Below, one piece after another: positions 6,987-53,724 of a stretch of DNA of 64,000 nucleotides (positions are counted from its first letter, which is position 1; every line of letters begins with the position of its first letter). The translations under genes were made by a program, and so were the position numbers. The stretch is from an uncultured virus (IMG/VR IMGVR_UViG_3300005239_004183) (Duplodnaviria > Heunggongvirae > Uroviricota > Caudoviricetes). The notes below the pieces were generated by a model. That model ran no database searches and had not been told where the DNA came from. It was given only the letters and a program-made list of their open reading frames with translations. The stretch lies in the IMG/VR virus record IMGVR_UViG_3300005239_004183, one strand, 5' to 3'.

Positions 6987-6988
6987 TT

Positions 6989-8955: not shown

Positions 8956-8973
8956 TTTTAATTCCTCCTTTTA

Positions 8974-9690: not shown

Positions 9691-9741
9691 GTTTTTTAAT
9701 TAGACACGCTACTATATAAAACTAATACCGAAGTATTTGTC

Positions 9742-10410: not shown

Positions 10411-10411
10411 A

Positions 10412-11314: not shown

Positions 11315-11330
11315 TCTAAACAACTCCTAT

Positions 11331-11942: not shown

Positions 11943-11988
11943 AATTTTTCATCTCCATTATTTTTTAAGAGTTTTAAATCCCTTCGGA

Positions 11989-12603
11989 TTAAGCCATGCC
12001 TCCTTCAAGTAGGCTTCGCTTATACCAATCCACATTGTTAGGATTGACTGTAATTCCCATCTCTAACAACTTGTTAGCAATTAGAGCGTCTGGACCGTCG
12101 TAAAGTGTGTATTTGACAAAGCAAGCAACTGCATCAGTAGCCGCAAGACCTACACCGCTTCGGTAAAGAACATCAAAAGTTTGTCCGGGTAGGACATAGA
12201 TGCTTGGATAAAGTGTGAAACTTGGAAGAACCGAAGTTGAAACATCGGTTGCGTTTCCAACACCAGCCGCACCGGGTAGTGGTGCGCCTCTTGGGTAAGG
12301 AGAAGCAAGACCCGGAACGCCCGCTTGGTCAGTAACATCGGGGTTCTGGAAGTAATCAGTTGTGTTGATTCTAACTTGAACCGCACCTTCTAATTGTGGT
12401 GAACAAGCAACATCTTCAATAACGATAAATTGCGTTGCGGTTGTTTCTGCCGGCTTTGTGATGTTATTTCCCTTGCCACCAATAAAAATTGATAGGTCGG
12501 TATCTGCCGCCAAGGTTAAAGTCCCTGCGGCTCCACTTGCTCGGCCTCTTGCGGAATTGCCCGCAATAATGCTCCATTCATATACTTGACTTCTCATTGC
12601 CAT
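11989..12603 (-). CDS. MAMRSQVYEW family protein, subtype A (putative major capsid protein)
   Basis: 204 aa; first gene of the array, downstream of a TTTAAGTA box near 12668-12676. Confidence 0.8.
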   Translation of the reverse strand: MAMRSQVYEWSIIAGNSARGRASGAAGTLTLAADTDLSIFIGGKGNNITKPAETTATQFIVIEDVACSPQLEGAVQVRINTTDYFQNPDVTDQAGVPGLASPYPRGAPLPGAAGVGNATDVSTSVLPSFTLYPSIYVLPGQTFDVLYRSGVGLAATDAVACFVKYTLYDGPDALIANKLLEMGITVNPNNVDWYKRSLLEGGMA

Positions 12604-18534: not shown

Positions 18535-19142
18535 TCAACCCCTATTTCTTAATAGAATAGGGATGATAGAGGCTACAATACCTGCACCTGCAAGATAATA
18601 CATATTTTTATCATCCACATTCTTAGAAGATACAAAAGATTCTGCATTCTTCAAGGTTTCAACTACCTTTTTAATGCCGTCTGTATCTTCTGGCATTTTT
18701 GAANNNNNNNNNNNNNNNNNNNNATTTGAGATAGAGTTTTAGATTTAGCCTCGTCTTTCGCAACTGATACTTTGTGTTGTTCAGTTTCAGTAAAACAAGT
18801 AAAACAAACGCCTGTTTTCTTATGGCAACCCTTATCTCTTAAATTAGAAATAACACAACTACATTTTGAACAGTTTTTTGGAACCATTTCTTCTGCCGAC
18901 TGAATTAATTTATCTTGCTTTTCATTAAAATCTTCAAGAGCCTTCATAAAAGCCTCTTCTGCTCTTTTCTTGTGATTGACATTTGAATTAGTTTTATCAA
19001 CCATTTCAATAGTTTTTCTTTGAACCTTTCGGGCATCCCTCTCAATACCTCTAACTTCTGGATTCTTTGAACCAGAATAAGGAGTTATAGCGATTTCATC
19101 AGAATCATTCTGTTGAACAGATTCATCAGCAAGATTATCCAT
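18535..19142 (-). CDS. Coiled-coil and Cys-cluster protein with C-terminal membrane anchor (spans N gap)
   Basis: CSKCSC..C..CFTC; after the gap another frame reads KNAESFV..YYLAGAGIVASIIPILLRNRG stop at 18535. Confidence 0.6.
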
Positions 19143-19755: not shown

Positions 19756-20994
19756 TTACCTATTTAACAACTTTGCTCCTGCAATTGCAGAAACACCGAC
19801 TACAATGAATGATGCAAATAATTTACCCATAGGGAAAGGTGATACTTCTTGAACCAATTCAACTACATCTTCTGCATCCACAACTAAATCACAAGCCTTG
19901 CAGGTTATTGGGTGAACCCCTGCGTGTCTAATTCTTGGAGATTCACAAGAGCAGGATATTTCATCATCTTCTGCATCATAGAGAGCGACCATTTCTTCTT
20001 CATTTGGATAGGAATTGCATTTGTAGCAAGAGAATAATTTTCCATCGTCAGAAAGTAATGCCGCTTTGTGATTTTTCCCATACCCACAATATGAGCATTC
20101 TTTATCTCTCTTATGCGACCAATAGAGGGTTTCTGCTTCCAAAGCCATTTCATCTCCGCAACCACAAGAATGTTCTGCCTCAAAGGATTCTGCATCCATC
20201 CTATATTTAGGACCATCTCGGTTAATAACGACTTCACATTCTTCACAAGGTTTATTTATATTAAAATTATCATATTCACATGATGGACAAATGCCCTTTT
20301 TAGCATCTTTAATCATTTCTTCATCAAGATAACAGTCGCAATTCCCATCCTCCTGTAATCCACAACCTTCGCAATCAACATAAGGTTTTGGAAATTTGAA
20401 AGAACCGTCTTTATTATATGCATCTTCACTTAACGATTCTGCATCATACTTTCTTCTTCCTCCGCAATCAGCACAAAAGATTTCGGATTCAGCACCCATA
20501 ACATCTTCTGCCCCTTCCACGAAAATAGGATTTATTTGGTTTAGTGTATCTGCTTGGAATGTTTCTGCACTCTTTGAATCATCTTGTTGTTGTTTAAGAT
20601 ACTCTTTAATCTCTTGCTTTTTTGAATCTCTTGAAACGACAATAGTATCAACTGAATGTCTTGGACCTCTCATGTTCTTATATCTTCTGGCTTCTTCTCC
20701 AATTTGAAATACTCGTTTCTTATTCTTTCCCATTGGTTGTTGTTCACCCTCAACTATAAGAAATCCTTCTGCTTCATCATACTTGATAGCAATAGGGTTA
20801 AATCCATGATTATCTTGATTTCCGATTTCAAAAAAATAAGAGCATTGTTTCATCTCGGAATCTTCTTTTTTAGAAGAACCTTTGATAACTGTGAAATCGC
20901 CATACAGTTTTGTAGTTGAATCATAAGAATCTGGGTCAAAAATCCAGAAATCCTTACTACTAATCAATACCGCATGGTATTTTTTAAGACCCAT
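19756..20994 (-). CDS. Multi-zinc-ribbon modular protein with C-terminal membrane anchor
   Basis: Many CxxC pairs separated by x-x-A-E motifs; C-terminal LFASFIVVGVSAIAGA plus KLLNR. Confidence 0.75.
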   Translation of the reverse strand: MGLKKYHAVLISSKDFWIFDPDSYDSTTKLYGDFTVIKGSSKKEDSEMKQCSYFFEIGNQDNHGFNPIAIKYDEAEGFLIVEGEQQPMGKNKKRVFQIGEEARRYKNMRGPRHSVDTIVVSRDSKKQEIKEYLKQQQDDSKSAETFQADTLNQINPIFVEGAEDVMGAESEIFCADCGGRRKYDAESLSEDAYNKDGSFKFPKPYVDCEGCGLQEDGNCDCYLDEEMIKDAKKGICPSCEYDNFNINKPCEECEVVINRDGPKYRMDAESFEAEHSCGCGDEMALEAETLYWSHKRDKECSYCGYGKNHKAALLSDDGKLFSCYKCNSYPNEEEMVALYDAEDDEISCSCESPRIRHAGVHPITCKACDLVVDAEDVVELVQEVSPFPMGKLFASFIVVGVSAIAGAKLLNR

Positions 20995-21849: not shown

Positions 21850-22191
21850 TTACTTTTTAATTTTAGATTCTTCATTAGAGTTATACTTTCTGCCCGTATA
21901 AAATCCCATAGAGCCAACTAAAGCAAGTGTCCCTAATGCCATATAATTATTAGAAACAAAAGAAATTAAATCTTCAAAAAAGCCACCTGCAAAGTTTTTA
22001 AAATACTCATTTCCAGACGAGGCTTCAAAGGATTCAGCAGGTTCAACAGGTTCAACCATATCTGGCTCTTCAATAGGTTCTGAAACTTCGGGTTCATCAA
22101 CTAATTCAGATGGTTCTGGTTCTGGCCTTTTTAAACCTAATTTTTCTAAAGTTAATGTTCCTACTCCAAACTCAATAGGGTCAAGTTTCAT
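21850..22191 (-). CDS. Pro/Glu-rich small protein with C-terminal TM
   Basis: EP repeats, AESFEAS, YMALGTLALVGSMGFY. Confidence 0.7.
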   Translation of the reverse strand: MKLDPIEFGVGTLTLEKLGLKRPEPEPSELVDEPEVSEPIEEPDMVEPVEPAESFEASSGNEYFKNFAGGFFEDLISFVSNNYMALGTLALVGSMGFYTGRKYNSNEESKIKK

Positions 22192-24137
22192 CACTCAACA
22201 CTTCCATTTCTTTGGTTTCTTCTCATTAAAATACCCAATACAAACAATCCTAACATAGAAACTCCGTAAGTTTTCATGTCTAATTTATTTGGAGGGTAAA
22301 TTTTATCCCAATTAATATCGGGTCGTGAACATCGGGAACAAAGATATGATGGACCTTTAACGGTCTTAATAGCCATCATCTCATCATTATAACCTTGCCT
22401 ATCGCACATTTCACATTCAACTTGTTTCCATTCTTCTGCCTCATATTGTTGCAAACCACCCATGATTGTGCCTCCTTCTTCAAACAAGAAATAAGTCCCA
22501 TCCCATTCTCGGTTCAAAATCTTTTCAATATCTTCAACTTTAATCCCCATAGGGTCTATAATACTTATAATTCTATCCTTAGAACCTAATTCTTTTCTCA
22601 CTACACTATCATGTCCGTATCTAATGGTTGCCATTTTTCCAACATAGAAAAGAACAGTATCTCTAAACACTTCAACTCGCTTAGGCCACTCATTATTTAC
22701 TTGAATATATTTGTCAGTAAAGTTTTCAGCACCAAACATCTCTTCCATCATCTCATCATAAAGGTCTGGGTCATCTTGTTGAAGTGATTTCATATACTCA
22801 AGAACATTTTTCTTATCAACAGGTTTTTCTCTAAATTCAACAGTAGCGGGCTTTTTGGCTCTTTTAGCCTTCTTTAATTCATCGTTCCATCTCGCACCGA
22901 TACCTAAGACAATTTGTTTTTTATTCCAACCTTTCCAATAAGAGTGTTTTCCAAGACCTCTCATAACATCTTTCAATTTTGCAACAGGCATAACTTGAGC
23001 AACGCCATCGGAACAAAGTGAAGGTTGTTGTTCTCCACCTTCAACTTTAGGGGGTCTTTGATTGTGAACCAGACCATAATGTTGCAAAGTTGTATATCCT
23101 TTCATTTGTGGAATACCCTGTTGTTCATTCCAATTTATTTCTGAAATGTGGGGTAATGCTCTATCATGGTAATGTTCATTTCCTATTCCCCTATTATAAT
23201 GTGGACTTGTAACCCTAACCTGCCTTTGCTCACCTTCATAATTAACATTTACAGTATTTCCATAATTCATCCCTCTTTGCAGAATTACATAATCTCTATT
23301 GCAATTTTCACATTCAATTACGGTTGAAACACAAATACCTTCACCATGTTGCGCTCTTGCTTCTGCTTCTGATACAAAGGAATTTCCACCCCACTTCATC
23401 ATTTGACCACAATGTTCACATTCTTCTTCGGTAAGCGGAGAACATTCATTCGCTTGGTGTTCTTCATGGGTATGTGGTGAAATTTTTAAATTTCTTCCTT
23501 GATTTTGTATCAGCCATTGTGAGGCGGCAGAATCGGGGTCATCTAATTGAGGATAATAATAAGTATCACAATTATTACATTGAACAGAAGGCCCTAAATT
23601 TAAAATAGCCGCCAATTTTTGTTGTAAATCTAAATGCCGATATATTCTAAATCTTGGACCCCCTAACCCATTCCAAATGCCCTCTTCATTATAGTAGTTA
23701 GGATACCGTTGAACAGTATAACTCAACGAGTTATCTTGCCATAATGAATTAACTGCCTCCATTTCTTCTTCTGCACCTTCAAGAGTCATCTGATATGGAT
23801 TACCATTATTGTTACCATCACCTTCTAATGTTATTCCACAATCATTACAAGAAACTCCGTGAAAAATAGGATATTGAACATATTGACCGGGAGGATACCG
23901 TATATTTCCATAATTCCGATTTTGATATTGAGGATTATTTGGAGGGTATTGGAATCCCAAATCTTGATAATGAACCTCTATGTTTTCAATCACTCCTTCT
24001 GCCCATTCTTGGAAGTGTTCTGGGTTAAAGGTGTATTCAAAATCGTGATAGCCTCTTGCAATACAGGCTTGAATGGCTTGTGCTTGTTGTTCTTCCAAGT
24101 CAAAAGATTCAACATCTTCTTCTTCTTCTTTTACCAT
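22191..24137 (-). CDS. Multi-zinc-finger modular protein with C-terminal membrane anchor
   Basis: Repeated CxxC..H..C units; C-terminal YGVSMLGLFVLGILM plus RRN. Confidence 0.75.
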   Translation of the reverse strand: MVKEEEEDVESFDLEEQQAQAIQACIARGYHDFEYTFNPEHFQEWAEGVIENIEVHYQDLGFQYPPNNPQYQNRNYGNIRYPPGQYVQYPIFHGVSCNDCGITLEGDGNNNGNPYQMTLEGAEEEMEAVNSLWQDNSLSYTVQRYPNYYNEEGIWNGLGGPRFRIYRHLDLQQKLAAILNLGPSVQCNNCDTYYYPQLDDPDSAASQWLIQNQGRNLKISPHTHEEHQANECSPLTEEECEHCGQMMKWGGNSFVSEAEARAQHGEGICVSTVIECENCNRDYVILQRGMNYGNTVNVNYEGEQRQVRVTSPHYNRGIGNEHYHDRALPHISEINWNEQQGIPQMKGYTTLQHYGLVHNQRPPKVEGGEQQPSLCSDGVAQVMPVAKLKDVMRGLGKHSYWKGWNKKQIVLGIGARWNDELKKAKRAKKPATVEFREKPVDKKNVLEYMKSLQQDDPDLYDEMMEEMFGAENFTDKYIQVNNEWPKRVEVFRDTVLFYVGKMATIRYGHDSVVRKELGSKDRIISIIDPMGIKVEDIEKILNREWDGTYFLFEEGGTIMGGLQQYEAEEWKQVECEMCDRQGYNDEMMAIKTVKGPSYLCSRCSRPDINWDKIYPPNKLDMKTYGVSMLGLFVLGILMRRNQRNGSVE

Positions 24138-24146
24138 CTATATCAC

Positions 24147-24935
24147 TTACTCCGTTGATTCAGTAGTATTATTTCCTGCATCAGTTGTTGAACCAGAAAT
24201 TTTAGTAAGTAAATAAGTTAATCCTCCAACAAGGCCAACACCCCACAAGACCTTGAAGCCAATTAGGGGATTCTTTCATAATCATCATAATGTTCCATTA
24301 ATTCAACCCCATTGACCATTATCATTATAATAACCCGGATGCCGACCAACATAAACTCCTTGCTCTTCCATTTCTTCTCTTAAAGCCCGATTGCCTCTAA
24401 TCATATCCATAGCGGCTCGGTCTGGATTGTAAATATCTCGGTCATCAATTTCATATTCCTTTTCTGGGATGGATACATTGTCCGACATTGCCTCATCAAA
24501 TGAATCGTAAGGTGCATTATCAAAATCGGCTTCAAAGGTTTCAGCCCCAAAATCTTCTGCTTCATATTCATAATTTCCCGCTTTACCGAATTTATTGAAA
24601 GCATTTTCAAATTTAGATTGGTGCGAAGAATCAAATTTAAAGTAATAACCATATCCATTTCCAATCTTTCTTACCGAACCTTTGGTTTTAATACCTGCAT
24701 CTTTTAGCATCTTTTTAACATCAGCCATTGTTAAGTCAGTATCATAAATTTGAACCCCCCATGTTTCAGCCTCAAATTGTTTATCTCTCAAATCTTGCGA
24801 CATTATTCTGTGCTTTCCAAGCCTTTGACTTAATTTTTCTATTTTAGAAGTAATATCAACACCATGAGGAATAACAATATTGGGCATTTCTGCATCAAAA
24901 GATTCTGCCTTTTTACAACCACAAGTATTACACAT
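24147..24935 (-). CDS. AE-motif-rich acidic protein, probably frameshifted near its 3' end, with C-terminal TM
   Basis: ATG at 24935 with GAGGTGA SD (MCNTCGCKKAESFDAE); ORF stops at 24303 but a downstream frame encodes GVGLVGGLTYLLTK..STE stop at 24147; breaks fall in G runs. Confidence 0.55.
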
Positions 24936-24945
24936 ATTAATCACC

Positions 24946-25398
24946 TCAAGCCGTAGTATTGGAATCTGTATCTGTTGCACCTGTTTCATTGGTAGCGTCT
25001 GCATCTTCGTCATCAGCAGGAGGTTCTTCACTTGGCTTGATAAACTTGTTATAAATTGCAAGGCCACCTAATGTTAGTAAAGTTAAGTTTCCAAACAAAA
25101 AGGACATACTTCCTGCATTCATACCTTCTGCTCGGTATTCTGTTGCATAATCATAGCCACCTTCTGCCATAAATCTTTTAGCCTCGGTTGTCATCTTTCC
25201 TTTTTGAAATAAACCTTCTCCCTTTGAACCCCATAGGATTGAACCTGCGGGGCTTAAAACTACTGAATTGCCTTGTTTTTCTGAAACTTCCATAGCCTTT
25301 TGAACCGCAGGTTGATAAGTTTTAAAATTACCATTTCCTTTCAAATGTCCATTCTTAGTTTCGTGTCCTACATAAAATTTCGGGTGTGTTCTTGACAT
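24946..25398 (-). CDS. Hypothetical protein with TM and short acidic tail
   Basis: MSFLFGNLTLLTLGGLAIY; GGTGA SD. Confidence 0.7.
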   Translation of the reverse strand: MSRTHPKFYVGHETKNGHLKGNGNFKTYQPAVQKAMEVSEKQGNSVVLSPAGSILWGSKGEGLFQKGKMTTEAKRFMAEGGYDYATEYRAEGMNAGSMSFLFGNLTLLTLGGLAIYNKFIKPSEEPPADDEDADATNETGATDTDSNTTA

Positions 25399-26076: not shown

Positions 26077-26535
26077 TCATTCCCAATTTTCTGCTTCATA
26101 ACCAATATCATCAAAGATTTCTGCTCCAAAAGATTCCGACTCAACCTTCAATCTATTCGCCATTTCTTCTGGAGAAATATCGTAGTCTTTCTTCATCTTT
26201 CGTGGTCGGTGCGGTTTCCCACTCATGGTTCTTACTCTTGGTCTGCCTTCTTCGGCCATTTTACCAAAAGCAAACTTTCCAAGTGAATCTCTATCGCCAC
26301 CAAAAACTTCACTAAAAGTAAGTCGTCTATTGACCGGATTTCCCATCTTCTTTCTCGCCTTCACACTTCTTTGTGCTAAAGTTTGCTTCGGTTCATCATC
26401 AACAGGCATTCCAATCATATTTTTTATACCATCCATAATTGGCTGACCTTTAACCTTCCTTTCATATATGGAAGTTTCCCAATCCTCATAAAGTGCATTA
26501 GGGTGTCCTGTAAGCATAGTATTTTTACCGGGCAT
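26077..26535 (-). CDS. Basic protein, likely continuation of 26424..27407
   Basis: Begins with LTGHPNALYEDWE, the end of the repeat unit seen in the upstream ORF (LTGHPSALYEEWE). Confidence 0.6.
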   Translation of the reverse strand: MPGKNTMLTGHPNALYEDWETSIYERKVKGQPIMDGIKNMIGMPVDDEPKQTLAQRSVKARKKMGNPVNRRLTFSEVFGGDRDSLGKFAFGKMAEEGRPRVRTMSGKPHRPRKMKKDYDISPEEMANRLKVESESFGAEIFDDIGYEAENWE

Positions 26536-27407
26536 AAATCTTCCAATAATCTCTCACCTTCTGCCCTTGTGAGCAATTCTAATCTTCGTGTAAGTGGAGT
26601 ATCTGGAACCGGATTTCTTGCCGTTCCATACCCTCTTTCCATAAACCATGCAAGGCCAGAATTACCACCCTTGTTTGAAACACCTCGGCTTTTAGCCCAT
26701 GTTCCAACTCTATCTCCCTTGTAAGTGATGATGCTTCTTTTGCCACCACCAATATTTGAATCCTTAATCCTTCTTGGACCACTCTTTGTCATTCTAACTT
26801 GACCTGTGGTGTTTTTAGGAGCAGGTCTTTGTTTGTATCCTGCATAATGCTTCTTAGCACCTTTCATTCCGTGTTTCTTAACCAATCCTTGCCACATAGT
26901 CAATTCTGCATCAAAAGCAGTTTCAGCACTATTAACTTGTTGTCCAGATACATTTTCCATATCTTCTTCCCATTCTTCGTAAAGTGCCGAAGGGTGTCCT
27001 GTTAATAAATCAGTCTTTCCTGCAATTCCTAATCTTCTTGCTAATGGAGTATCTGGAACAGGATTTCTCTTTGTTCCATATCCTCTATCCATAAACCATG
27101 ATTTACCAGACGCTCCCTTAGTCTTATTGCCTCCACTCTTAGTCCATGTTCCTACCTTATCACCTTTATAGAACAAATTACTTCTCTTTCCACCGCCAAT
27201 CTTGTTGCCCTTAACTCTTCGGGCTCCTTTCTTTGTGCTAACAACATTTCCTGTGGTTGTTGGAGGAACAGGTCTTTGAGAATATCCAGAATAGTGCTTT
27301 TTAGCACCTTCCACACCATGTTGTGAAACTAATTTCTGCCACTTGGTAGTTTTTACCTTCCTACCTCTTGAATCTGTAAAAGTTTTTCTGCCACCTTTCC
27401 GAGCCAT
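26424..27407 (-). CDS. Lys/Arg/Gly-rich protein with two tandem homologous domains (putative nucleic-acid-binding core protein)
   Basis: WQxLVxxHGxxGAKKHY..GGGKRS..YKGDxVGTW..WFMxRGYGTxRNPVPDTPL occurs twice; TATA at 27430. Confidence 0.75.
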   Translation of the reverse strand: MARKGGRKTFTDSRGRKVKTTKWQKLVSQHGVEGAKKHYSGYSQRPVPPTTTGNVVSTKKGARRVKGNKIGGGKRSNLFYKGDKVGTWTKSGGNKTKGASGKSWFMDRGYGTKRNPVPDTPLARRLGIAGKTDLLTGHPSALYEEWEEDMENVSGQQVNSAETAFDAELTMWQGLVKKHGMKGAKKHYAGYKQRPAPKNTTGQVRMTKSGPRRIKDSNIGGGKRSIITYKGDRVGTWAKSRGVSNKGGNSGLAWFMERGYGTARNPVPDTPLTRRLELLTRAEGERLLEDLCPVKILCLQDTLMHFMRIGKLPYMKGRLKVSQLWMV

Positions 27408-28483: not shown

Positions 28484-28804
28484 TTAGCCTCTTCTGCCGG
28501 ATACAATAAATCTTGAAAGAATATAAAACGCACTTGAAGCAATACTTACAATTGCCGCACCTTTAACGAAATTGTTTTTAATTTCTGGAACACTTGAATA
28601 TAATTCTTCTGATTCTGTTGCAGACCATTCATATTGAGGCATCTTATTTTCTGACTCCATATCAATTTCGTTGTCATCATCACTATCATCATAATTAGAA
28701 TCATTATCTGCTGAAAATGCATCACTAAACGAATGTGGAGATTTAGATAGATTTTTGGAAGTATCTGATGAATAAGTATCATTAAATGATACCATAGGAT
28801 TCAT
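28484..28804 (-). CDS. Acidic protein with C-terminal membrane anchor
   Basis: GAAIVSIASSAFYILSRFIV plus SGRRG; true start may be upstream near 28866. Confidence 0.65.
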   Translation of the reverse strand: MNPMVSFNDTYSSDTSKNLSKSPHSFSDAFSADNDSNYDDSDDDNEIDMESENKMPQYEWSATESEELYSSVPEIKNNFVKGAAIVSIASSAFYILSRFIVSGRRG

Positions 28805-28882
28805 AGGTTGGGATAATTTAGAAACTACATTGATATTTTTACCTTTGTGTTGTGTTCTTCTTTCATATCAACTCTCCAACCA

Positions 28883-29767
28883 CTACATAGCTTGGTCTTT
28901 ATAATATTCGGGAGCATAACATACCATATCTCCAGATTCAGCATAAGTTATCCCCGACAAGATTTTATTAATTGTTGCTTTATCTGTTCCAAAGGATAAT
29001 TGTTCTTTAAGAGCATTCAAATCCTTTGTGTTAATAATATTGTGAATCATATATACTGATGCTTGTGAAAGTGCCTCTTTTGATACTGCCGCCGGTCTTT
29101 GTGAAATTAATGCAACCCCATAGCCCTTAGCCCTTCCTAATTTACATAATCTAACAATTGGTGCAAAAGATTGAGGTCTGCCCATTTGAGGGATGAAATC
29201 TTGACATTCTTCAAAAAAGGTCATCAAACCTTTATCACTAATCATAGTTTCTAAAATACCCTCGCAATAATCTGCAATTAATCTTTGTTGCATTTCTAAA
29301 CCTAATCCACTCATATTAATGATGAGTGATGAGCCAGACTGTTGTAATCTTTCAACAAGTTTTTTCATATTAATAGTTTCATGCCTTTGAGGTTCTATTG
29401 ATTCAATGCCATCCAATTCACAAAGATGCCCATGAGCATCAAGAGCATCAAAACAAACAAATTGTAATCCATGCCGTTCAAACTCTTCCATCAATACGGC
29501 ACTTGTCCAAGATTTTCCAGAACCTCTTTTACCACCTACGAACAACACTTGATAAACAATTTCCAATGGGAATTTAAATTTAGAACCTATTTGAACCATG
29601 TCTTGAGGGTTATTTGTTTCATCTTCGGGAGCATAACCAAAAGACATAGAATCTTCTAATGATAATTTTCCCGTCTGTAATCCCCAAGAATCATTAGATT
29701 CAGATTCAAACTCATCCTCATCATCATAATCAGATAGTGCAGATTCATCATACTCATAATCACTCAT
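28883..29767 (-). CDS. HerA/FtsK-superfamily P-loop ATPase (candidate genome-packaging ATPase)
   Basis: Walker A GKRGSGKS, Walker B FFEECQ, GRAKG arginine finger region, ISQRPA motif. Confidence 0.85.
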   Translation of the reverse strand: MSDYEYDESALSDYDDEDEFESESNDSWGLQTGKLSLEDSMSFGYAPEDETNNPQDMVQIGSKFKFPLEIVYQVLFVGGKRGSGKSWTSAVLMEEFERHGLQFVCFDALDAHGHLCELDGIESIEPQRHETINMKKLVERLQQSGSSLIINMSGLGLEMQQRLIADYCEGILETMISDKGLMTFFEECQDFIPQMGRPQSFAPIVRLCKLGRAKGYGVALISQRPAAVSKEALSQASVYMIHNIINTKDLNALKEQLSFGTDKATINKILSGITYAESGDMVCYAPEYYKDQAM

Positions 29768-34422: not shown

Positions 34423-34569
34423 TTAACTATTACCTTTCTTTTTTTCATAATAATCAACCACAAGCATGGTTAATTGTTTATTTCTCCACAACACCCAATG
34501 GACAAAATAAACTTGAAGCGAACCATTAAAAATCAGATATAAAACAACAAAAAATAACCACAAATCCAT
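34423..34569 (-). CDS. 48-aa membrane peptide (not in ORF track)
   Basis: MDLWLFFVVLYLIFNGSLQVYFVHWVLW..; GAGGTG SD at the end of the upstream gene. Confidence 0.55.
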   Translation of the reverse strand: MDLWLFFVVLYLIFNGSLQVYFVHWVLWRNKQLTMLVVDYYEKKKGNS

Positions 34570-34571
34570 AT

Positions 34572-35741
34572 TTACACCTCAAAAGTATAAGTAGCCCCTT
34601 TAGCGGTCTTTTTCTTTTTCATCTTTTTATATTCAATACCTAAGTCTTGAAAATAATACCTCATAGACCCAATCTTATATCCATCATTAAATAGTTTTAA
34701 ATCACTTGAAGGCGGTAAAATAAGCCTCATAGTTGTTTTTCCACTATCCTCATCAACCTCAATAGTGTTGGAATGCTGTAAATCAAATCGCATACCTCGT
34801 TCCCTCCACAACAATCGTGAAAAACTATTAAGATGTTCACCTCTTGGCTCATAAGGGAGTTTGGATACACCTACTAAATTAATACCTTCTCCCTTCGTAA
34901 AAGTGTTGTATAATGAAATATAACCTTTTTGACCATCATGTTGCATTTTTAATAATGCAACTGCTTTATTTTTATTAGCAAGCGACCATGTATCTTCATC
35001 AAAAGAAGGAATTATATTATTAACTATGATATTGTGGACTTTAAATCCTTGGGTTTTCAAAAACTTGCAGGTTTTTATACATTCTTGATAACCTGCTTCG
35101 GTAGGAATACTTACAATATTAATATTTACAAAATCCTCATTCCTTAGAATAGATTTTAACCTATTAATTTTATCAATTGTTTCTTCTAAAAGTATAACTA
35201 ATTTCTTAGTATCTCCCTTTTTAATAAACATTGTTTTTAGCCCTTCAACTCTTGCTTTCATTCTTAAAATTCTTAATAAAAATGTATTCAAAGAATCGGG
35301 GGCGGTTAGTGCTTTTAATGTATGTCCTGTGGGAGCAGTATCAAAAACAATTAAATCATAATCAACACTTTGGACTAAATAAAGTAATTCTTCTAATGCA
35401 AAAACTTCATCCATACCGGGAAATGAAGCCCACTCGGTTAATAATTCGGGGTCAAAGCCCGGAAACCACTTACCTATGGATTTATCAATCCCTTCTTGCA
35501 TCTGCCCTACAAATTCCTTTGCTCTAATTTCAGAATAAATATTTTTAGCATAAAAATTTTCAGAAATCATAACAGGTTCAGAACCTACTGCAACACCTAC
35601 AACATCTTCGGTTGAGTGTGCAGGGTCGGAAGATACCAATAAAGTCTTATATCCTTTTTCAGCCCAACTATGAGCAGTAGCGGCAGATGTAGTGGATTTG
35701 CCAACGCCTCCCTTCCCGGTAAATAATATTAACTTAGCCAT
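34572..35741 (-). CDS. ArsA/Get3(TRC40)-family ATPase, single domain with C-terminal extension
   Basis: GKGGVGKST, SSDPAHS, PGMDE, DTAPTGHT, IPTE, IVNN motifs. Confidence 0.92.
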   Translation of the reverse strand: MAKLILFTGKGGVGKSTTSAATAHSWAEKGYKTLLVSSDPAHSTEDVVGVAVGSEPVMISENFYAKNIYSEIRAKEFVGQMQEGIDKSIGKWFPGFDPELLTEWASFPGMDEVFALEELLYLVQSVDYDLIVFDTAPTGHTLKALTAPDSLNTFLLRILRMKARVEGLKTMFIKKGDTKKLVILLEETIDKINRLKSILRNEDFVNINIVSIPTEAGYQECIKTCKFLKTQGFKVHNIIVNNIIPSFDEDTWSLANKNKAVALLKMQHDGQKGYISLYNTFTKGEGINLVGVSKLPYEPRGEHLNSFSRLLWRERGMRFDLQHSNTIEVDEDSGKTTMRLILPPSSDLKLFNDGYKIGSMRYYFQDLGIEYKKMKKKKTAKGATYTFEV

Positions 35742-37135: not shown

Positions 37136-38824
37136 TCATTCTAATGAATCTAAGATTCCATCACCGTCATCATCCAAATCAAGGTAATCTTCTAAACCGT
37201 CATTATCGTGGTCAAATTGACCCGTCATATCATTACCATCATTGTTCTCAAACCAATCAGACAAACCATCATTATCGTCATCTAAATCAGAAGCATCCCA
37301 GATGTTGTCATTATCATGGTCATATCTATATGATGCCCAAGCACCACCGATTTCATCAACATCAAGAATGTTATCATTATCATCATCGGAATCTATACCA
37401 TCATTAAGGCCGTCATTATCATGGTCCCTCATAGCAGATGTTCCATTATCATAAACATCTTTGTAATTATCAATACCATCATTGTCAATATCTAAATCAA
37501 ACCTATCTTGGATGCCGTCATTGTCATGGTCGTAAATGTTGGTGTCGTCATTTCCATCATTAACTTCTTCTTCGTCGTTAATTCCATCTCCGTCATCATC
37601 ATCATCTTCAACATCAGCGATACCGTCATTGTCGTGGTCAAATGGTGAATCATCCATGTCATTAGGAATACCATCATTATCATTATCGTTGTCTAAATCA
37701 TTAGGGATTCCATCACCATCATTGTCGTTTTCACTTTGACCGTCTAATTGCTGACCCTGTTGTTGTGTATTTTGCTGACCCTGCTGACCTTGCTGACCAT
37801 TTTGAGTTTGACCTTGTTGTTGTTCATTTTGACCATTGTTGTTTTGACCATTCTGTTCCTGTTGTTGTTGCTCGGACTGTTGGCCTCCTTGTTGGCCTCC
37901 TTGTTGTTGCTGACCTTGGCCATTATCTTGTTGCTGACCTTGTTGGCCTTGTTGTCCTTGTTGTCCTTGATTACCTTGTTGGCCACCTTGCTGACCTTGC
38001 TGACCTGCTTGGCCTTGTTGTCCTTGCTGACCTTGCTGACCTTGCTGACCTTGCTGACCTTGGCCTTGGCCTTGTCCTTGTCCTTGTCCTTGTCCTTGGC
38101 CTTGTCCTTGTCCTTGTCCTTGCCTTGGCCTTGTCCTTGTCCTTGGCCTTGTCCTTGTCCTTGTCCTTGGCCTTGTCCTTGGCCTTGGTCCTTGTCCTTG
38201 TCCTTGTCCTTGGCCTTGGCCTTGTCCTTGTCCTTGGCCTTGGCCTTGTCCTTGGCCTTGTCCTTGACCTTGCCCTTGTCCTTGACCTTGCCCTTGGCCT
38301 TCGCCACCTGCATCTGATTCACCACCACCTTCTGTTCCTCCATTTCCAGAACCAGCATCAGATTCTTGGAAATCTGGGTCGTAAGCATCGGGGATACCAT
38401 CTCCATCGGAATCGGAGTATTCTCCATCGTTAGGGTCTGTTGGGAATTGGTCTGTATTATCGGGTTTGCCGTCACCATCAGTGTCGGCATTGTTAGGATT
38501 TGTTCCCTTAGCATACTCTTGAGCGTTGGTTAGACCATCACCATCGGGGTCTGCATTTCCATCACCACCATTGGTAGGATTGAGGCCGTTAGCGACTTCC
38601 CATCCATCGGGAAGGCCATCGCCATCGGAATCGGCATTATTCATGTTTGTGCCGTGATTTTGTTCTTCGGAATTTGTTAGTCCATCGCCATCCCAATCAG
38701 CCCCACCATCGGAGGGGTCAAGCGGGTCGCTACCATCAGCGAGAGCAATACCCGCAGACATAGCGAGCATAAGGGCGGTTATAATTGTTAGAATAGATTT
38801 TTTAATTGATTTGTTTTGATTCAT
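37136..38824 (-). CDS. Secreted protein with thrombospondin type 3-like Ca-binding repeats and a Gly-Gln linker
   Basis: Signal-peptide-like N-terminus; DxDGDG and DHDNDG repeats; (GQ)n and (GQQ)n tract. Confidence 0.85.
   Translation of the reverse strand: MNQNKSIKKSILTIITALMLAMSAGIALADGSDPLDPSDGGADWDGDGLTNSEEQNHGTNMNNADSDGDGLPDGWEVANGLNPTNGGDGNADPDGDGLTNAQEYAKGTNPNNADTDGDGKPDNTDQFPTDPNDGEYSDSDGDGIPDAYDPDFQESDAGSGNGGTEGGGESDAGGEGQGQGQGQGQGQGQGQGQGQGQGQGQGQGQGQGQGQGPRPRTRPRTRTRTRPRTRTRPRQGQGQGQGQGQGQGQGQGQGQGQQGQQGQQGQQGQQGQAGQQGQQGGQQGNQGQQGQQGQQGQQQDNGQGQQQQGGQQGGQQSEQQQQEQNGQNNNGQNEQQQGQTQNGQQGQQGQQNTQQQGQQLDGQSENDNDGDGIPNDLDNDNDNDGIPNDMDDSPFDHDNDGIADVEDDDDDGDGINDEEEVNDGNDDTNIYDHDNDGIQDRFDLDIDNDGIDNYKDVYDNGTSAMRDHDNDGLNDGIDSDDDNDNILDVDEIGGAWASYRYDHDNDNIWDASDLDDDNDGLSDWFENNDGNDMTGQFDHDNDGLEDYLDLDDDGDGILDSLE
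37750..38300. repeat. 6-bp and 9-bp coding microsatellites (GQ, GQQ)
   Basis: ccttgt/ccttgg and ccttgctga tandem units. Confidence 0.9.
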
Positions 38825-39053
38825 GTTTGTTCACAGTTTTAATTTTTAAGGACACCGATTGTCCTTCTCCACTCACTTTCATTATCTCTTATGCTATCTA
38901 AACATTCGTATCAAATGCTAACAAGAATATCACGCATCTAACTTGGTCTTAGACCACTCTTAGGTGCGGGGGCTTACGGGCAATACCATTCGCCATCAAA
39001 GCGGGGTAGGTGGCCGCTATCATTTAATTCAATNNNNNNNNNNNNNNNNNNNN

Positions 39054-39217
39054 GTCTGTTCTTCGGAGTTGGTCAAACCATCACCATCCCAATCAGCCCC
39101 ACCATCGGAGGGGTCAAGTGGGTCACTACCATCGGCAGTTACCACGCTTGCACTCATGGCAAGCATAATGGCGGTTAAAATTGTAAGCATCGTGTTTTTG
39201 AATCTATTTTCGTTCAT
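39054..39217 (-). CDS. 5' fragment of a paralog of the Ca-binding repeat protein
   Basis: Signal peptide plus ADGSDPLDPSDGGADWDGDGLTNSEEQ identical to 37136..38824; remainder in gap. Confidence 0.75.
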
Positions 39218-39947: not shown

Positions 39948-40366
39948 ACAAATGGAACATAAATTACATTGTTTTTATTAAAAGATTTCTCAAGATAATC
40001 CTTGAGGGGTAAAACCTTGAAGAAAATAAACGATTCATCAGTAGCCATATATTTATTCCATTCTAAGGATTGTGTAAAATTCTTAAATTTAACGGCATCA
40101 AATGGCCTTATGCCGAATTTATCAAATGCCTTTGTTAATTTTTCTTCTTTAAAACTTAATCCAAGTTTATATTCAAAGGTTTCAGAAAATATTTCATCAA
40201 TCGCTTCTGAAATTCCTAATAGGGCTTCTTTTTCATTTTTATAAGCCCCAAAGAACAAATCTGTAATGGGAATTGGGTTGTTATTTGCAAAACCTAATGT
40301 AGCATAAGTTACTATTTGAGTATCTTTTTGGAAGGTTTCATAATCTTCCGACTCAAATTTTTTCAT
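39944..40366 (-). CDS. Hypothetical protein
   Basis: Overlaps the stop of the upstream gene; starts MKKFESE. Confidence 0.65.
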   Translation of the reverse strand: MKKFESEDYETFQKDTQIVTYATLGFANNNPIPITDLFFGAYKNEKEALLGISEAIDEIFSETFEYKLGLSFKEEKLTKAFDKFGIRPFDAVKFKNFTQSLEWNKYMATDESFIFFKVLPLKDYLEKSFNKNNVIYVPFV

Positions 40367-43361
40367 TTTTTTTAAACTCTTCTGGGATGAATTCTGGCTT
40401 TAGCCAATCAAGAAGTTTATCACCTTTTACGATGGAATAAACATATTTTGCTTTCATGGAGTATCCTGTGTATTTTCTTTCATACACATCTGGCTTCAAA
40501 AACGCTAAAACTCTATGAACATTACTCGGATTTAACCCCCTTGTGGTTCGGTATTTTGAATTTGAATTGACTCTATCTGCCCAACCTGTTGCAGATAATT
40601 CACTACCATAATCATTCAAAGCCATAACTGCCTTCATAACATCAGACCTTCTAAATCCACCTCTTTTACCACCAAATAATTTAATTGTTTGATTCGCCAT
40701 CTTTGCTACTTCGCCATCAGCGTAAGTTTTACCTTTTGCAACAGGTTCGCCTGTAATCGGACACCGACCTTCGGCTTCAAATGTTTCAGCATTAAACAAT
40801 TCACTTTCAACAAAAGAGGTGAAATCTTCATTGTTCGCATTTTGATTCATGGTTACTGCGATAGCCATTGATTTTTCTTCAAAGGTTTTTGCATCACCGC
40901 CAATCAAAATTTTGTAAGCATAATTTACAAAATCCTTATCATTTAGATTTTGCTGAACCGCCTCAATTACCCATTCGGATTCAAAAGTTTCAGCATCTAA
41001 CCTTTCAATCTTGAGTGGCTTCTTTGCTTTCTTTGCATTCTTTCGTGCCTTTTCTAAAGCCTTAGCCAAAGGTCCTTCGGGGTCGCCACCAAAAGATTCT
41101 GCATTCATGTTTTCTTGAGTAATAAAATTGGTTTGGTCGCATTTGGAACAGTATGTATAATCGCCTTGAACCATTTCTGTTGAATTACAGTATTTGCAAA
41201 CCATTAAACCATCGTCATTCTCATACATACCATCAGCATCAAAAGATTCTGCCGATTTCCTAAACATAAATCTCTCATACCAAGCATCAAAACTTTCACC
41301 TTCTTTCTTGGTTTTCTTATACATTGGAATCCAATGCGGATTAGCCAACATCAATCCACTAATTTTTGATGGTTTGTTTCCCTCATCTTCTGCATCAAAC
41401 TTATTATGGTTTTCCATTAGCCAAGAAATAACATTTGGAGCATCATAATGGTCTGCAATAAACCAACTCATTTCTTGTGCATCTTCTGGGTCAATATCAA
41501 ACCTATAACAAAACTCTTTGTAAGCGATACTCCCTAAGTTTTTAACCATTTCATACATATCATCAACAGTTTTAATATCTTGTAATTCTTCCGCATAATA
41601 TCGGTCTTGCATCTTCAAGCCCTTGATGTAATCTCTTCTTTCTTGTTCATCAGCATAAGCCTTTTCTTCAAACACATAACCGCCCTTAGACATTCGCTCA
41701 TTTATTTGCCTCAATTCATTTCTATTGAAAATTGCAGTAACATCTTGATTATGCCTTACAATGTTCCAATAAGCCCTAATTGCTTCGGAAGTAATTGGCT
41801 TAAAATCATCATTGTGTAAATGTTCATGTTTCAAAGAAGTAAGCGTTGGTAATTCTGGAGATTGGAATTGATTTTCAGAATATAGCCCCTCATTCATTCC
41901 CTTTCTCATTCTGGAAGTTGAAATCCGAGTAGTTAGAATGCCCATTTTGCCCGTCTTTTGAGGAATAGTAGTGTCTATCCTATCCTGTTCTTCGTCAAAT
42001 TCCTTAGAAGTGATGTAAGTATTATACTCTTGCTCATCCGTTAAAGCAACCAATCCCCAATTATCAACAAATGGGAATTGACCATAGCCCATTTCAGACC
42101 AAATCTTTTTCTGCCTTCCAAGATTTCCACCATCATGGTCAGCACCCCTAACAATGTGAGTAACTCCTGTCATCTTATCATCAACAACAGATTGAAGATT
42201 CATAAGTGGGACACATAGATTTTCACCACCATACTCAACCATTCTAAACAAGATTTCACCTGCTCGGTTATCAAAATCCTTATTAATATCTCCTTTAGGA
42301 ATAGATGCAGTTAATTTTATTGCCGCTTCCCCTGCCGCATATTCACCCTGTAACATTGATGCAAATATGGATAAGTTGTTATCCACCCCACTAACCAACC
42401 CATCTCGTCTGGTATCACAAACTGCCTTTTCTTTTCGGATTGCATTAATAACTTCATTTTGATAAAGTGTAAATCTTTCAGAAGCAATAATAATATTTCT
42501 TTTTGGAATATCTGTATCTAATAACCACTCCATCTCATCAATAATTTGTTGAAACACATCGGGAATTCCATACTCACTCAAATCAGTTGATTTTGCAGGG
42601 TCAGTATCGTCAAATCTTAAAAGTAGTTTAGCCCCCGGATACCTTTTCTCATATTCTCCCAATAAACAAACTCCCCTGCTATGTCCAATACTTAAAGGTC
42701 CATTAGGAGTAGGTGCAAACCGAACCACGACTCTATCCTTAGTATCTTCAATAATTCCTGTTTGAATATCAACATTCATCAAATCATCGGGAGTGTGAGG
42801 GAAGTTAATGGGGATTCCATAATCACCTAATTTCTTTTCAAGCATTTCAATCTTGTCTGGATTTAATGGAACATACTTATTATATATTTTTTCATAGATT
42901 CCGATAGGTGCATCTAAGAATCCATTAAGAATAACTTGTCTTTTGCCGTAAATCTCATCAGACCGTTGCTCAAGAATTGGAATCAAAATTCGCTTCCAAA
43001 TAAACGCCTTATCATTTTCAATTCCTTCTTTAAATGCCCGATATACTTTAGCATGAACAATCATTTCAATATAATCTTTAATTTCAGAAGGAAGATACAA
43101 AGAGTTAAGCCTTTTCATATCAAGTTGTTTTTTTAATTCTTCTAAGGTTTGCTTAGATTGGATAGGATTATCAATTGCAGATTGAGCAATATCTTTCATC
43201 TGCCCCTTCATCATTCCAATAGCAGATTTATCAAAACCGGGAATTCTTGAAAACTTTCCTAACAAGGACATTTCAACAAAGCCTTTTGTCAAGGCTTCAC
43301 TTAGAACCAGATAGGTAGCATAATCAATGCTTTCATCTCTATTCATTGAAGAATCAACCAT
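40353..43361 (-). CDS. Fusion protein: archaeal-type glutamyl-tRNA synthetase catalytic domain plus unrelated AE-delimited modules
   Basis: VVVRFAPTPNGPLSIGH, LLRFDDTDP, VVDD..GVTHIVRGADH, ISTS, PELPTL motifs; no anticodon-binding region recognisable. Confidence 0.85.
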   Translation of the reverse strand: MVDSSMNRDESIDYATYLVLSEALTKGFVEMSLLGKFSRIPGFDKSAIGMMKGQMKDIAQSAIDNPIQSKQTLEELKKQLDMKRLNSLYLPSEIKDYIEMIVHAKVYRAFKEGIENDKAFIWKRILIPILEQRSDEIYGKRQVILNGFLDAPIGIYEKIYNKYVPLNPDKIEMLEKKLGDYGIPINFPHTPDDLMNVDIQTGIIEDTKDRVVVRFAPTPNGPLSIGHSRGVCLLGEYEKRYPGAKLLLRFDDTDPAKSTDLSEYGIPDVFQQIIDEMEWLLDTDIPKRNIIIASERFTLYQNEVINAIRKEKAVCDTRRDGLVSGVDNNLSIFASMLQGEYAAGEAAIKLTASIPKGDINKDFDNRAGEILFRMVEYGGENLCVPLMNLQSVVDDKMTGVTHIVRGADHDGGNLGRQKKIWSEMGYGQFPFVDNWGLVALTDEQEYNTYITSKEFDEEQDRIDTTIPQKTGKMGILTTRISTSRMRKGMNEGLYSENQFQSPELPTLTSLKHEHLHNDDFKPITSEAIRAYWNIVRHNQDVTAIFNRNELRQINERMSKGGYVFEEKAYADEQERRDYIKGLKMQDRYYAEELQDIKTVDDMYEMVKNLGSIAYKEFCYRFDIDPEDAQEMSWFIADHYDAPNVISWLMENHNKFDAEDEGNKPSKISGLMLANPHWIPMYKKTKKEGESFDAWYERFMFRKSAESFDADGMYENDDGLMVCKYCNSTEMVQGDYTYCSKCDQTNFITQENMNAESFGGDPEGPLAKALEKARKNAKKAKKPLKIERLDAETFESEWVIEAVQQNLNDKDFVNYAYKILIGGDAKTFEEKSMAIAVTMNQNANNEDFTSFVESELFNAETFEAEGRCPITGEPVAKGKTYADGEVAKMANQTIKLFGGKRGGFRRSDVMKAVMALNDYGSELSATGWADRVNSNSKYRTTRGLNPSNVHRVLAFLKPDVYERKYTGYSMKAKYVYSIVKGDKLLDWLKPEFIPEEFKKNEKI

Positions 43362-46503: not shown

Positions 46504-46580
46504 TGGTGGACAATATCGGACTTGAACCGATGGTCGCCCGGTTATGAGCCGGGTGCATTAACCTACTATGCTAATTGTCC
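46504..46580 (-). tRNA. tRNA with CAT anticodon (Ile2-like, alternatively Met), CCA encoded
   Basis: GGACAAT/ATTGTCC acceptor, CCCGG-CTCATAA-CCGGG anticodon arm, GTTCAAGT T-loop. Confidence 0.9.
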
Positions 46581-46583
46581 TTG

Positions 46584-46668
46584 TGGTGTCGGGGGCAGGA
46601 TTTGAACCTGCGAATCATTATGAACAGGAATTTAAGCCCTGCGCCTTTAACCACTCGGCCACCCCGAC
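46584..46668 (-). tRNA. tRNA-Leu(TAA), CCA encoded
   Basis: GTCGGGG/CCCCGAC acceptor, CAGGG-CTTAAAT-TCCTG arm, long variable arm. Confidence 0.92.
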
Positions 46669-46709
46669 CTGTTTCTTTGTCATTTTTTTTATATTTTTAA
46701 AATTACAGG

Positions 46710-46781
46710 CGGGCGTAGGAGGAATTGAACCCCCATCTCCGGCTTAGAAGGCCAGAATGCTATCCGTTACACCATACACCC
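46710..46781 (-). tRNA. tRNA-Arg(TCT)
   Basis: GGGTGTA/TACGCCC acceptor, CTGGC-CTTCTAA-GCCGG arm; followed by CCT not CCA. Confidence 0.9.
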
Positions 46782-46867
46782 TTTTGCCTGTAAATTAAAG
46801 TAATCATCAATACTATATTAACTTTACTTAATTATACTTTGAAATAATTATTTAATAGGTGCTAAAA

Positions 46868-46944
46868 TGGCGAGCGATAAGGGATTTGAACCCCTGTTAT
46901 CGGCTTAGGAGGCCAATGTGCTATCCAAACTACACTAATCGCTC
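46868..46944 (-). tRNA. tRNA-Arg(CCT), CCA encoded
   Basis: GAGCGAT/ATCGCTC acceptor, TTGGC-CTCCTAA-GCCGA arm. Confidence 0.92.
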
Positions 46945-52429: not shown

Positions 52430-53005
52430 AGTAAATTCAGAATCCTTTTTATTTACAAATTCTCCAGAACCNNNNNNNNNNNNNNNNNNNNNNNNNNNNN
52501 NNNNNNNNNNNNNNNNNNNNNNNNNNNNNNNNNNNNNNNNNNNNNNNNNNNNNNNNNNNNNNNNNNNNNNNNNNNNNNNNNNNNNNNNNNNNNNNNNNNN
52601 NNNNNNNNNNNNNNNNNNNNNNNNNNNNNNNNNNNNNNNNNNNNNNNNNNNNNNNNNNNNNNNNNNNNNNNNNNNNNNNNNNNNNNNNNNNNNNNNNNNN
52701 NNNNNNNNNNNNNNNNNNNNNNNNNNNNNNNNNNNNNNNNNNNNNNNNNNNNNNNNNNNNNNNNNNNNNNNNNNNNNNNNNNNNNNNNNNNNNNNNNNNN
52801 NNNNNNNNNNNNNNNNNNNNNNNNNNNNNNNNNNNNNNNNNNNNNNNNNNNNNNNNNNNNNNNNNNNNNNNNNNNNNNNNNNNNNNNNNNNNNNNNNNNN
52901 NNNNNNNNNNNNNNNNNNNNNNNNNNNNNNNNNNNNNNNNNNNNNNNNNNNNNNNNNNNNNNNNNNNNNNNNNNNNNNNNNNNNNNNNNNNNNNNNNNNN
53001 NNNNC

Positions 53006-53724
53006 TCAATAGCCCTTAACATCATCCGAGGCTCTTCTTCAAATCGCCTAACAGGATTGCCTACTGTTTTTAAAATATTAGAATGAATATCCCACGACCC
53101 TTGAAAATAATCATAGATATATCCTCTTTCATCCATTATTAACGAATTGACAGTAAAATCTTTATTATTAATTTCATCTATAATCCTATTATATATTTCA
53201 TACATAGGAATAGTCTTAGAATCTTTAACTATCGGAGGTAAATATTTAGAATAAGTGGATATTTCAAATTTCCATCTTTTACCCTCAAGAGTTTTAGTAG
53301 CAGTTACTAATGGCCTATGCCCCTCAACTATATATTTATTATTCTTTTTCAAACCCTCTTCCAATTCCTTGATTTTATCAAATTCAGATACAACAGATAC
53401 CCCTCCATCAACTTTCTTATATTTTTTAAAGCCATTATTGATATTCTCAAATCCTAAATCACTTAGTATTTGTTCAACATCAGATGGTAACATAGGAGTA
53501 ATGAAATCAAAATCATTCACCTTCTTGTATTTTACCATATCCCTTACTGCACCACCCACTAAAAACAAATCTGTAAATTTGTCTGAAAAAGATTTAAAGA
53601 TACTTATAACTTCTTTATAAACTGTTGATTCGGAGGGTGTGATTTTTTTAATCTCTCTTTCTAACGAACCTTGAAACTTTTTTTTAGGTTGAGGTGTTTT
53701 CTTATTTTCTGATTCAAATATCAT
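53006..53724 (-). CDS. Class II CCA-adding enzyme / poly(A) polymerase family nucleotidyltransferase, N-terminal part
   Basis: LVGGAVRD..DFDF, DFTVNSL, IYDYFQG..DI..ILKTVG.P..RFEEEPRMMLRA. Confidence 0.85.

Follow-up and report, generated by a model that had tools for sequence, protein, structure and literature searches.

The open reading frame at positions 34572-35741 of the 64,000-nucleotide stretch of DNA analysed (the window) encodes a Get3-like ATPase, as identified by its motifs, insert, family score, tree position and fold. The element that carries it is likely a large uncultured marine DNA virus of archaea, and sequence comparison indicates that the ATPase was likely taken from the Get3 of a probable Poseidoniales host. 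Delivery of membrane proteins with a tail anchor (TA proteins) by the ATPase is plausible. Three observations were new: the HerA-like ATPase of the element is itself a TA protein, a likely cleavage motif is overrepresented in the TA proteins, and the ATPase is accompanied by a 48-residue membrane protein. Neither a virus-encoded Get3 nor this element family was found in the accessible literature searched, and ArsA, arsen and Get3 were not mentioned in the accessible part of PMC11706807. The element appears to belong to an abundant, undescribed family of marine archaeal virus-like elements.

The ATPase and the gene downstream of it were located as follows.

34572-35741, minus strand: Get3-like ATPase of 389 residues, with a SIMIBI ATPase domain plus Get3 insert (about residues 1-312) and a C-terminal beta domain (residues 325-388)
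34423-34569, minus strand: 48-residue membrane protein with an N-terminal helix and a conserved FVxWxLxRN motif, 2 bp downstream of the ATPase gene

Proteins of the 64-kb window were scanned with Pfam. The ATPase matched ArsA_ATPase (E 1.9e-58) and contained one P-loop, in keeping with its description in the sequence-only reading as a single-domain ArsA-family protein. Against TIGR00345 (GET3/TRC40) it scored 186.5 bits, above the cut-off of 135; scores against TIGR04291 (arsenical-pump ArsA; 91.8 bits, cut-off 650) and NF050088 (Get3d; 71 bits, cut-off 325) fell below theirs. A protein search gave 6823 matches among 7996 candidates scored, and the 120 homologues listed were 48-97% identical to the query and mostly 382-416 residues long. 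The query was aligned with 38 of these 120, hand-picked for spread (n = 39). The P-loop, SDPAHST (with switch I Asp39), FPGxDE and DTAPTGHT were invariant or nearly so across the 39 sequences. Five phage records matched the ATPase weakly (24-29% identity), one of them annotated as an arsenite pump ATPase. Contigs from two RNA runs of one study overlapped parts of the ATPase gene; these are strandless and DNA carry-over is possible.

An AlphaFold monomer model of the ATPase (pLDDT 84.3) contained long helices at residues 147-167 and 178-199, corresponding to the Get3 insert. The hydrophobic helix noted earlier after DTAPTGH was present, and the C-terminal extension, also noted earlier, was modelled as seven predicted strands (residues 325-388). 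The top Foldseek match of the model was archaeal Get3 3ug6 (E 6.4e-23). With VIA-align the best match was archaeal Get3 3zq6 (Z 26.2, rmsd 3.9, 275 residues aligned), ahead of ArsA 1f48 (Z 21.1); all of these structural matches cover the ATPase domain only. Between switch II and the following strand, four element proteins have 63-64 residues and two proteins of Poseidoniales have 64, compared with 70-73 in three methanogen or eukaryote-type Get3 proteins and 38-50 in six ArsA domains.

Identification of the gene as an auxiliary arsenite-resistance gene for ArsA would account for database names such as 'arsenite-transporting ATPase' and for the fold and nucleotide-binding motifs that the element protein shares with ArsA (1f48, 9nbo). 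This identity is hardly credible on the other evidence. ArsA is a tandem two-domain protein, whereas the element ATPase is a single-domain protein with the Get3 insert. The metalloid-binding cysteines of LfArsA are C114, C173 and C422 (PMC12415280, partial text). In the element ATPase, FPG replaces the G/S-A/P-C of ArsA, which holds the first metalloid cysteine, and the site of the second is occupied by a hydrophobic insert lacking Cys. Residues 68-200 of the window ATPase contain no Cys, compared with two in each of four ArsA N-domains, and the only Cys column common among the 39 aligned sequences (column 221, 31/39) lies outside the metalloid sites. As the sequence-only reading had remarked, no arsenic-resistance gene lies nearby: a Pfam scan of 65 window proteins detected none. 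Neither ArsB nor ArsD was present in any of the five related records, and an Acr3-type SBF protein was found in 0/4.

A large tree was calculated from 144 rows, obtained from 191 by removing short rows and rows of >80% identity. A bootstrap tree was calculated from 50 of the 144 rows; neither tree included true Get3d. ArsA was split from all Get3-like rows with support of 100/100 in the bootstrap tree, and the same separation was present in the 144-row tree. The ATPase thus joined Get3 rather than arsenite-activated ArsA, and the alignment gave the same answer with respect to the metal ligands. The element ATPases formed one clade (100/99) on a long stem branch (0.71), and Poseidoniales-type Get3 formed another (100/99). 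Support for these two clades as sisters was only 89/75, or 90/98 with one deltaproteobacterial row added. One bacterial alpha-crystallin Get3 (L078) stood apart on a long branch of the bootstrap tree.

Among single-domain proteins, the best sequence and fold matches were the archaeal Get3 proteins of M. thermautotrophicus (3zq6) and M. jannaschii (3ug6/3ug7), which share with the element protein one ATPase domain, the Get3 insert and a lack of metalloid cysteines. Identity to these was 25-28%. The element insert is shorter by 6-9 residues and in three cases contains 4-6 Met compared with 8-16, and the element protein differs in being encoded by a virus-like element and in having an extra C-terminal beta domain. 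The CxxC zinc dimer motif of the methanogen proteins was not found in the element ATPase clade; it is also missing from many other Get3 groups (PMC6593721 Table 1, partial text). The nearest cellular clade was the alpha-crystallin-domain Get3 of Poseidoniales, which is consistent with archaeal group 11 in Farkas et al. 2019 (PMC6593721, partial text). These proteins resemble the element ATPase in the 64-residue insert segment, in having no CxxC and in C-terminal domains that align with its own, and differ in being only 31-37% identical, in the length of the element stem and in the loss of the beta domain from part of the element clade. No account of the function of Poseidoniales Get3 was found in the literature searched.

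No Pfam match was obtained for the C-terminal domain. In a profile-profile comparison it aligned with C-termini of the Poseidoniales clade over 73 columns (probability 76.5, E 2e-5; reversed control 0.4). Three of those C-termini matched ArsA_HSP20 weakly, under the cut-off, and the closest Atlas clusters of the element domain were all ArsA_HSP20 (0.79-0.82), which served as a lead only. On these sequence matches the domain is likely of alpha-crystallin type, divergent and acquired together with the host gene. It was missing from 13/28 element-clade metagenome loci, which encode shorter forms that retain the Get3 insert and ATPase motifs. This loss fits with the behaviour of alpha-crystallin-type Get3d, which captures a TA protein whether that domain is present or not (PMC10248533, partial text). 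The comparison with Get3d-type proteins drawn earlier was upheld for the presence of a C-terminal beta domain; on this domain the element protein is linked to the Poseidoniales alpha-crystallin-type Get3 rather than to Get3d proper. Plant and cyanobacterial Get3d (8elf, 3igf) and mycobacterial BagA/B (6bs3) share the Get3 fold, a C-terminal beta domain and the lack of CxxC, and are more distant (Z 16.7, 19.6 and 23.1, respectively; 16-21% identity). Switch I is intact in the element protein, whereas the sites of AtGet3d and NosGet3d are degenerate (PMC10248533, partial text).

The ATPase was present in five IMG/VR records (G001-G005), found by an alignment-based scan of viral contigs; a single-sequence scan of the same contigs gave no matches. 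An independent search with a conserved paralogue of the window protein 11989-12603 also gave four of the five. G004 is nearly a duplicate of G003 and was excluded from pooled counts. Inverted terminal repeats were present in G002 (166 kb) and G005 (160 kb), and co-occurrence over complete genomes refers to these two ITR-bounded records. Relatives that keep the TA proteins without the ATPase would count against a targeting role; the ATPase was present in each of the four records in which the main capsid-like gene was found. Near-identical DNA was present in marine and estuarine runs from 13 studies in total, 18 runs holding at least half of the stretch. Many contigs of 120-200 kb from the family were also encountered.

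From 263 open reading frames called in G002, 144 proteins were scanned, and the matches included both PolD subunits, TBP, TFB, PCNA, MCM, ligase and RNR.

L094:16782-19997 (plus strand), L099:12642-14009 (minus strand), L099:15369-15935 (minus strand) and L093:2914-3903 (plus strand): PolD subunits, TBP, TFB, PCNA and MCM region of G002

A search of 50,697 phage records gave no match to PolD or PCNA. No terminase, portal or capsid Pfam family was detected among the 144 G002 proteins and terminase PF03237 was found in 0/4 element records, divergent forms being possible in both searches. Magroviruses and Satyavativiridae of Poseidoniales are tailed and have terminase and portal (PMC13108676; PMC11706807, partial text). 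Two further features of G002 were observed: three tandem similar genes at L094:9189-11769 (plus strand), of which the first matches C5 DNA methylases, and, at L100:1-2656 (minus strand), a large protein with a Cu/Zn superoxide dismutase domain.

The TFB of G002 scored 345-355 bits in 4/5 genomes of the Poseidoniales-type Get3 clade, compared with at most 304 bits in five other archaea. Poseidoniales are the probable host because of this higher score. A search of 401 host-phylum genomes gave no member of the capsid-like family described below, so it provides no direct link to the host. Host-type Get3 was present in 156/301 genomes of the probable host order (the order of G006). Many of the listed host-order genomes in which Get3 was not found are smaller ones, from incompleteness or lineage loss.

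TA proteins were called by a rule requiring one hydrophobic window, no more than 30 residues from the end and beyond residue 40, in a protein of at least 60 residues. Calls were made with an ORF caller and a 17-residue Kyte-Doolittle window, without a signal-peptide predictor. The candidates of the window, including the ten listed in the sequence-only reading, are given below with the best 17-residue mean and the tail length in brackets.

1-693, minus strand: predicted TA protein with a clear helix (2.02, 3)
695-2989, minus strand: predicted TA protein with a SAP domain and many hydrophobic-x-Ala-Glu motifs, clear helix (2.08, 9)
4453-4818, minus strand: predicted TA protein with a clear helix (1.84, 2)
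18535-19142, minus strand: likely TA protein, broken by a 20-N scaffold gap, the C-terminal piece with a clear helix (1.95, 4)
19756-20994, minus strand: predicted TA protein, Cys-rich with hydrophobic-x-Ala-Glu motifs, clear helix (1.94, 2)
21850-22191, minus strand: doubtful TA protein with a weakly hydrophobic helix (mean 1.27)
22191-24137, minus strand: borderline TA protein (1.58, 10)
24147-25013, minus strand: likely TA protein, frameshifted in the window (1.62, 22)
24946-25398, minus strand: single-pass protein (mean 1.64) whose acidic tail of 35 residues exceeds the 30 allowed by the TA rule
28484-29767, minus strand: HerA/FtsK-like ATPase that ends in a membrane anchor and is split in the window; a candidate for both the packaging ATPase and a core TA client

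Four of the ten proposed TA proteins were clear. Two more were likely and broken by assembly faults, three were borderline or doubtful, and one was the tail of another gene. The frame 24147-24935 contains four stops in the window, and contigs of 4/4 public runs lack three single bases there; with these bases removed it is likely one TA gene. The frame 28484-28804 was rejected as a separate TA gene, as it encodes the C-terminal end of the HerA-like ATPase, a single ORF of 428 residues in L140. In all three public runs covering the split, three bases are present that are missing from the window, and their loss is likely due to assembly errors. Clusters of small indels relative to independent public contigs were located at 24241-24307, 26380-26578 and 28865-28890; they break several genes and are likewise likely assembly errors.

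The HerA-like ATPase was found in 5/5 records, with HerA profile matches that were weak and all under the cut-off. It has 394-433 residues with a terminal hydrophobic helix in G001, G002, G003 and G005, and likewise at L140:7862-9148. A long acidic linker precedes the C-terminal anchor.

Pooled over the window, G001, G002, G003 and G005, 72/750 genes encoded TA proteins. The same rule gave 6/406 in Poseidoniales DNA, an approximately sevenfold excess in the element (p 1e-8), 17/1104 in other cellular loci, and 0-1/140 in the tailed archaeal virus HGTV-1 (100 of 144 kb). The abundance of TA proteins proposed from the window was thus borne out genome-wide. Within the window itself the count was 6/75 (or 7/75), compared with the same host value (p 0.005, or 0.001). 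At the strictest hydrophobicity threshold it fell to 1/75, no higher than the host, and relatives remained at 5-9%; the window TA helices are only moderately hydrophobic. N-anchored single-pass proteins were also raised about twofold (56/750 compared with 16/406 in host DNA), and part of the TA signal is therefore general. The earlier statement that TA proteins lie alongside the ATPase held at the scale of the genome and not of the operon: TA genes were depleted within 10 kb of the ATPase (5/130) relative to those further off (67/620; p 0.013). An exception was the basal relative L167 (L167:95-10930), which has a shorter Get3 and, by eye, five ORFs with hydrophobic ends within 10 kb upstream. 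It is perhaps a distant family with an operon-level link between TA proteins and Get3.

The motif [FLMY]xAE was observed 112 times in TA proteins, with 21 expected, and 238 times in element proteins lacking a helix, with 113 expected. No excess was present in host DNA or HGTV-1. If this hydrophobic-x-Ala-Glu motif is a maturation-cleavage site, it would mark many of the TA proteins as virion precursors. No protease for the motif was identified in the element.

Host takeover, in which the viral copy would pair with or outcompete host Get3 and divert or block the insertion of host membrane proteins, is in keeping with the nearest cellular clade being the Get3 of the probable host, present in about half of the genomes of its order. 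We consider it very unlikely. The catalytic motifs are invariant, unlike those of a dead decoy, the ATPase shares only about a third of its residues with the host protein, and the host DNA encodes few TA proteins.

The gene for the 48-residue protein was directly or closely downstream of the ATPase in 5/5 records and 20/28 metagenome loci, among other neighbours that vary. It was undetected in 8/28 loci, four of which (L142, L143, L150 and L167) had enough downstream sequence and four too little. A profile search with the protein gave 30 clusters, all of 44-137 residues, and no match was found in the cellular loci searched, so that this partner also sets the element apart from Poseidoniales Get3. 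From its sequence and position the protein is a candidate receptor or dedicated client of the ATPase.

In the extreme case it could be the only client: the ATPase would bind the 48-residue protein alone, for example to restrain a lytic or membrane-remodelling peptide until release, in the manner of an antiholin. The linkage of the two genes amid changing neighbours and the uniformly small size of the protein across its clusters would suit such a pair. We regard it as quite unlikely, since the small gene was not detected by the ATPase in the four loci named above, its helix is N-terminal and not a tail anchor, and the TA excess would be left unexplained.

The virion type was examined from a cluster of paralogous proteins.

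6363-12603, minus strand: paralogous cluster of candidate capsid proteins (11331-11942, 11989-12603, 9742-10410, 10412-11314, 8974-9690 and 6363-6986)

At least six paralogues were present in the window cluster, and two closely conserved types were present in 4/4 relatives. SH1-type viruses have two capsid proteins, to which these two types were likened. Paralogue 11331-11942 had 1730 homologues, and its Atlas clusters were 95-100% viral. Its model (pLDDT 75) was a beta sandwich with a single jelly roll predicted. In both fold searches its best match was SPV1 6oj0, which was weak (E 1.4e-3; Z 6.8, rmsd 3.5, 131 residues aligned) and tied with non-capsid folds. SPV1 is a membrane-containing virus. 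The model points weakly to the paralogues being single jelly-roll capsid proteins.

The element resembles the single jelly-roll, membrane-containing viruses SPV1, SH1 and HHIV-2 in this match to SPV1, in the HerA/FtsK-like ATPase and in a similar TA share. It differs from them in having its own PolD, TBP and TFB, from SH1 in being about five times larger (160-166 kb compared with 31 kb), and from SH1 and HHIV-2 in encoding Get3. TA genes in SH1, PRD1 and HHIV-2 together numbered 7/100 or 4/100, not significantly below the element (p 0.47 and 0.09, respectively). No homologue of the ATPase was found in these three viruses, so membrane viruses can be TA-rich and manage without Get3. Adjoining the capsid-like cluster, a single-domain AAA+ ATPase (FtsH/PAN/CDC48-like; window 4851-6194, minus strand) was present in 4/5 records. 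It might extract or remodel membrane proteins.

These observations bear on a further reading, that the ATPase is a general holdase or quality-control chaperone for exposed hydrophobic segments, working with the AAA+ ATPase, and that TA richness is an unrelated feature of a membrane virion. A similar TA share in membrane viruses lacking Get3 and the recurrence of the AAA+ gene are both in its favour. Get3 has holdase activity, and alpha-crystallin-type homologues have been proposed as general chaperones (PMC6593721, PMC10248533, partial texts). TA counts are uncorrelated with most bacterial Get3 homologues, general chaperoning was proposed, and the Get3 insert alone does not predict TA targeting (PMC6593721, partial text). 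We judge this reading to be unlikely, though the weightiest of the alternatives to delivery. Relatives that have lost the beta domain still keep the Get3 insert and ATPase motifs, and the tight linkage to the 48-residue membrane protein points to a task at the membrane.

We lean slightly towards delivery: a Get3 of the host lineage would have been acquired and kept as an ATP-cycling chaperone that brings the C-terminal membrane helices of the element's own proteins to the virion-forming membrane. With a Get3 copy and about a tenth of its proteins predicted to be TA, the element probably brings its own escort for a membrane-containing particle. By analogy with other Get3 proteins, the ATPase would form a homodimer with a hydrophobic groove. 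It would capture TA helices after translation during infection, when many would be made at once. It would then dock at the membrane, possibly through the 48-residue protein, with insertion probably carried out by a host insertase. An EMC3/TMCO1-family gene (PF01956) gave one match in the host genome G006, and Get1/EMC3-like genes of this family were found in 0/4 element records. Anchored precursors, among them the HerA-like ATPase and the hydrophobic-x-Ala-Glu proteins, would line the future virion membrane and may be released by a protease. Of four archaeal Get3 homologues studied, only one delivered its cargo to a membrane (PMC6593721, partial text), which speaks against this reading, as do the depletion of TA genes around the ATPase and the Get3 that about half of the host-order genomes have of their own. 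If the delivery role is correct, this would be a virus that carries its own membrane-protein biogenesis factor.

A stronger version is offered tentatively and is, in our estimate, improbable in its full form. Here a widespread archaeal virus family of ∼160 kb with PolD and single jelly-roll capsids would run a private two-component GET route, in which the captured Get3 and a 48-residue receptor unrelated to Get1/Get2 would load dozens of TA precursors, including the packaging ATPase, onto the nascent virion membrane, and a protease would free them at hydrophobic-x-Ala-Glu sites. If true, a virus-encoded factor of this kind for targeting membrane proteins would be described for the first time, and a prokaryotic Get3 would gain its first defined set of natural clients. 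Which clients and receptors prokaryotic Get3 proteins naturally have is an open question (PMC6593721, partial text). The question becomes testable with few constructs for a Get3 in a small genome with defined candidate clients and one candidate membrane partner.

Several other genes of the window were observed. A secreted TSP3-repeat protein with a GQ/Q-rich linker is encoded at 37136-38824 (minus strand), and its ends are 79-88% identical in 5/5 records. Its beginning occurs a second time at 39029-39217 (minus strand), next to an N gap, and this copy may be an assembly duplicate. At 40353-43361 (minus strand), modules with the Ala-Glu motif are joined to the catalytic domain of a glutamyl-tRNA synthetase in one protein of 1002 residues. 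Four tRNA genes (Met, Leu and two Arg) and a CCA/poly(A)-polymerase-type nucleotidyltransferase were located at 46504-46944 and 52453-53724 (both minus strand).
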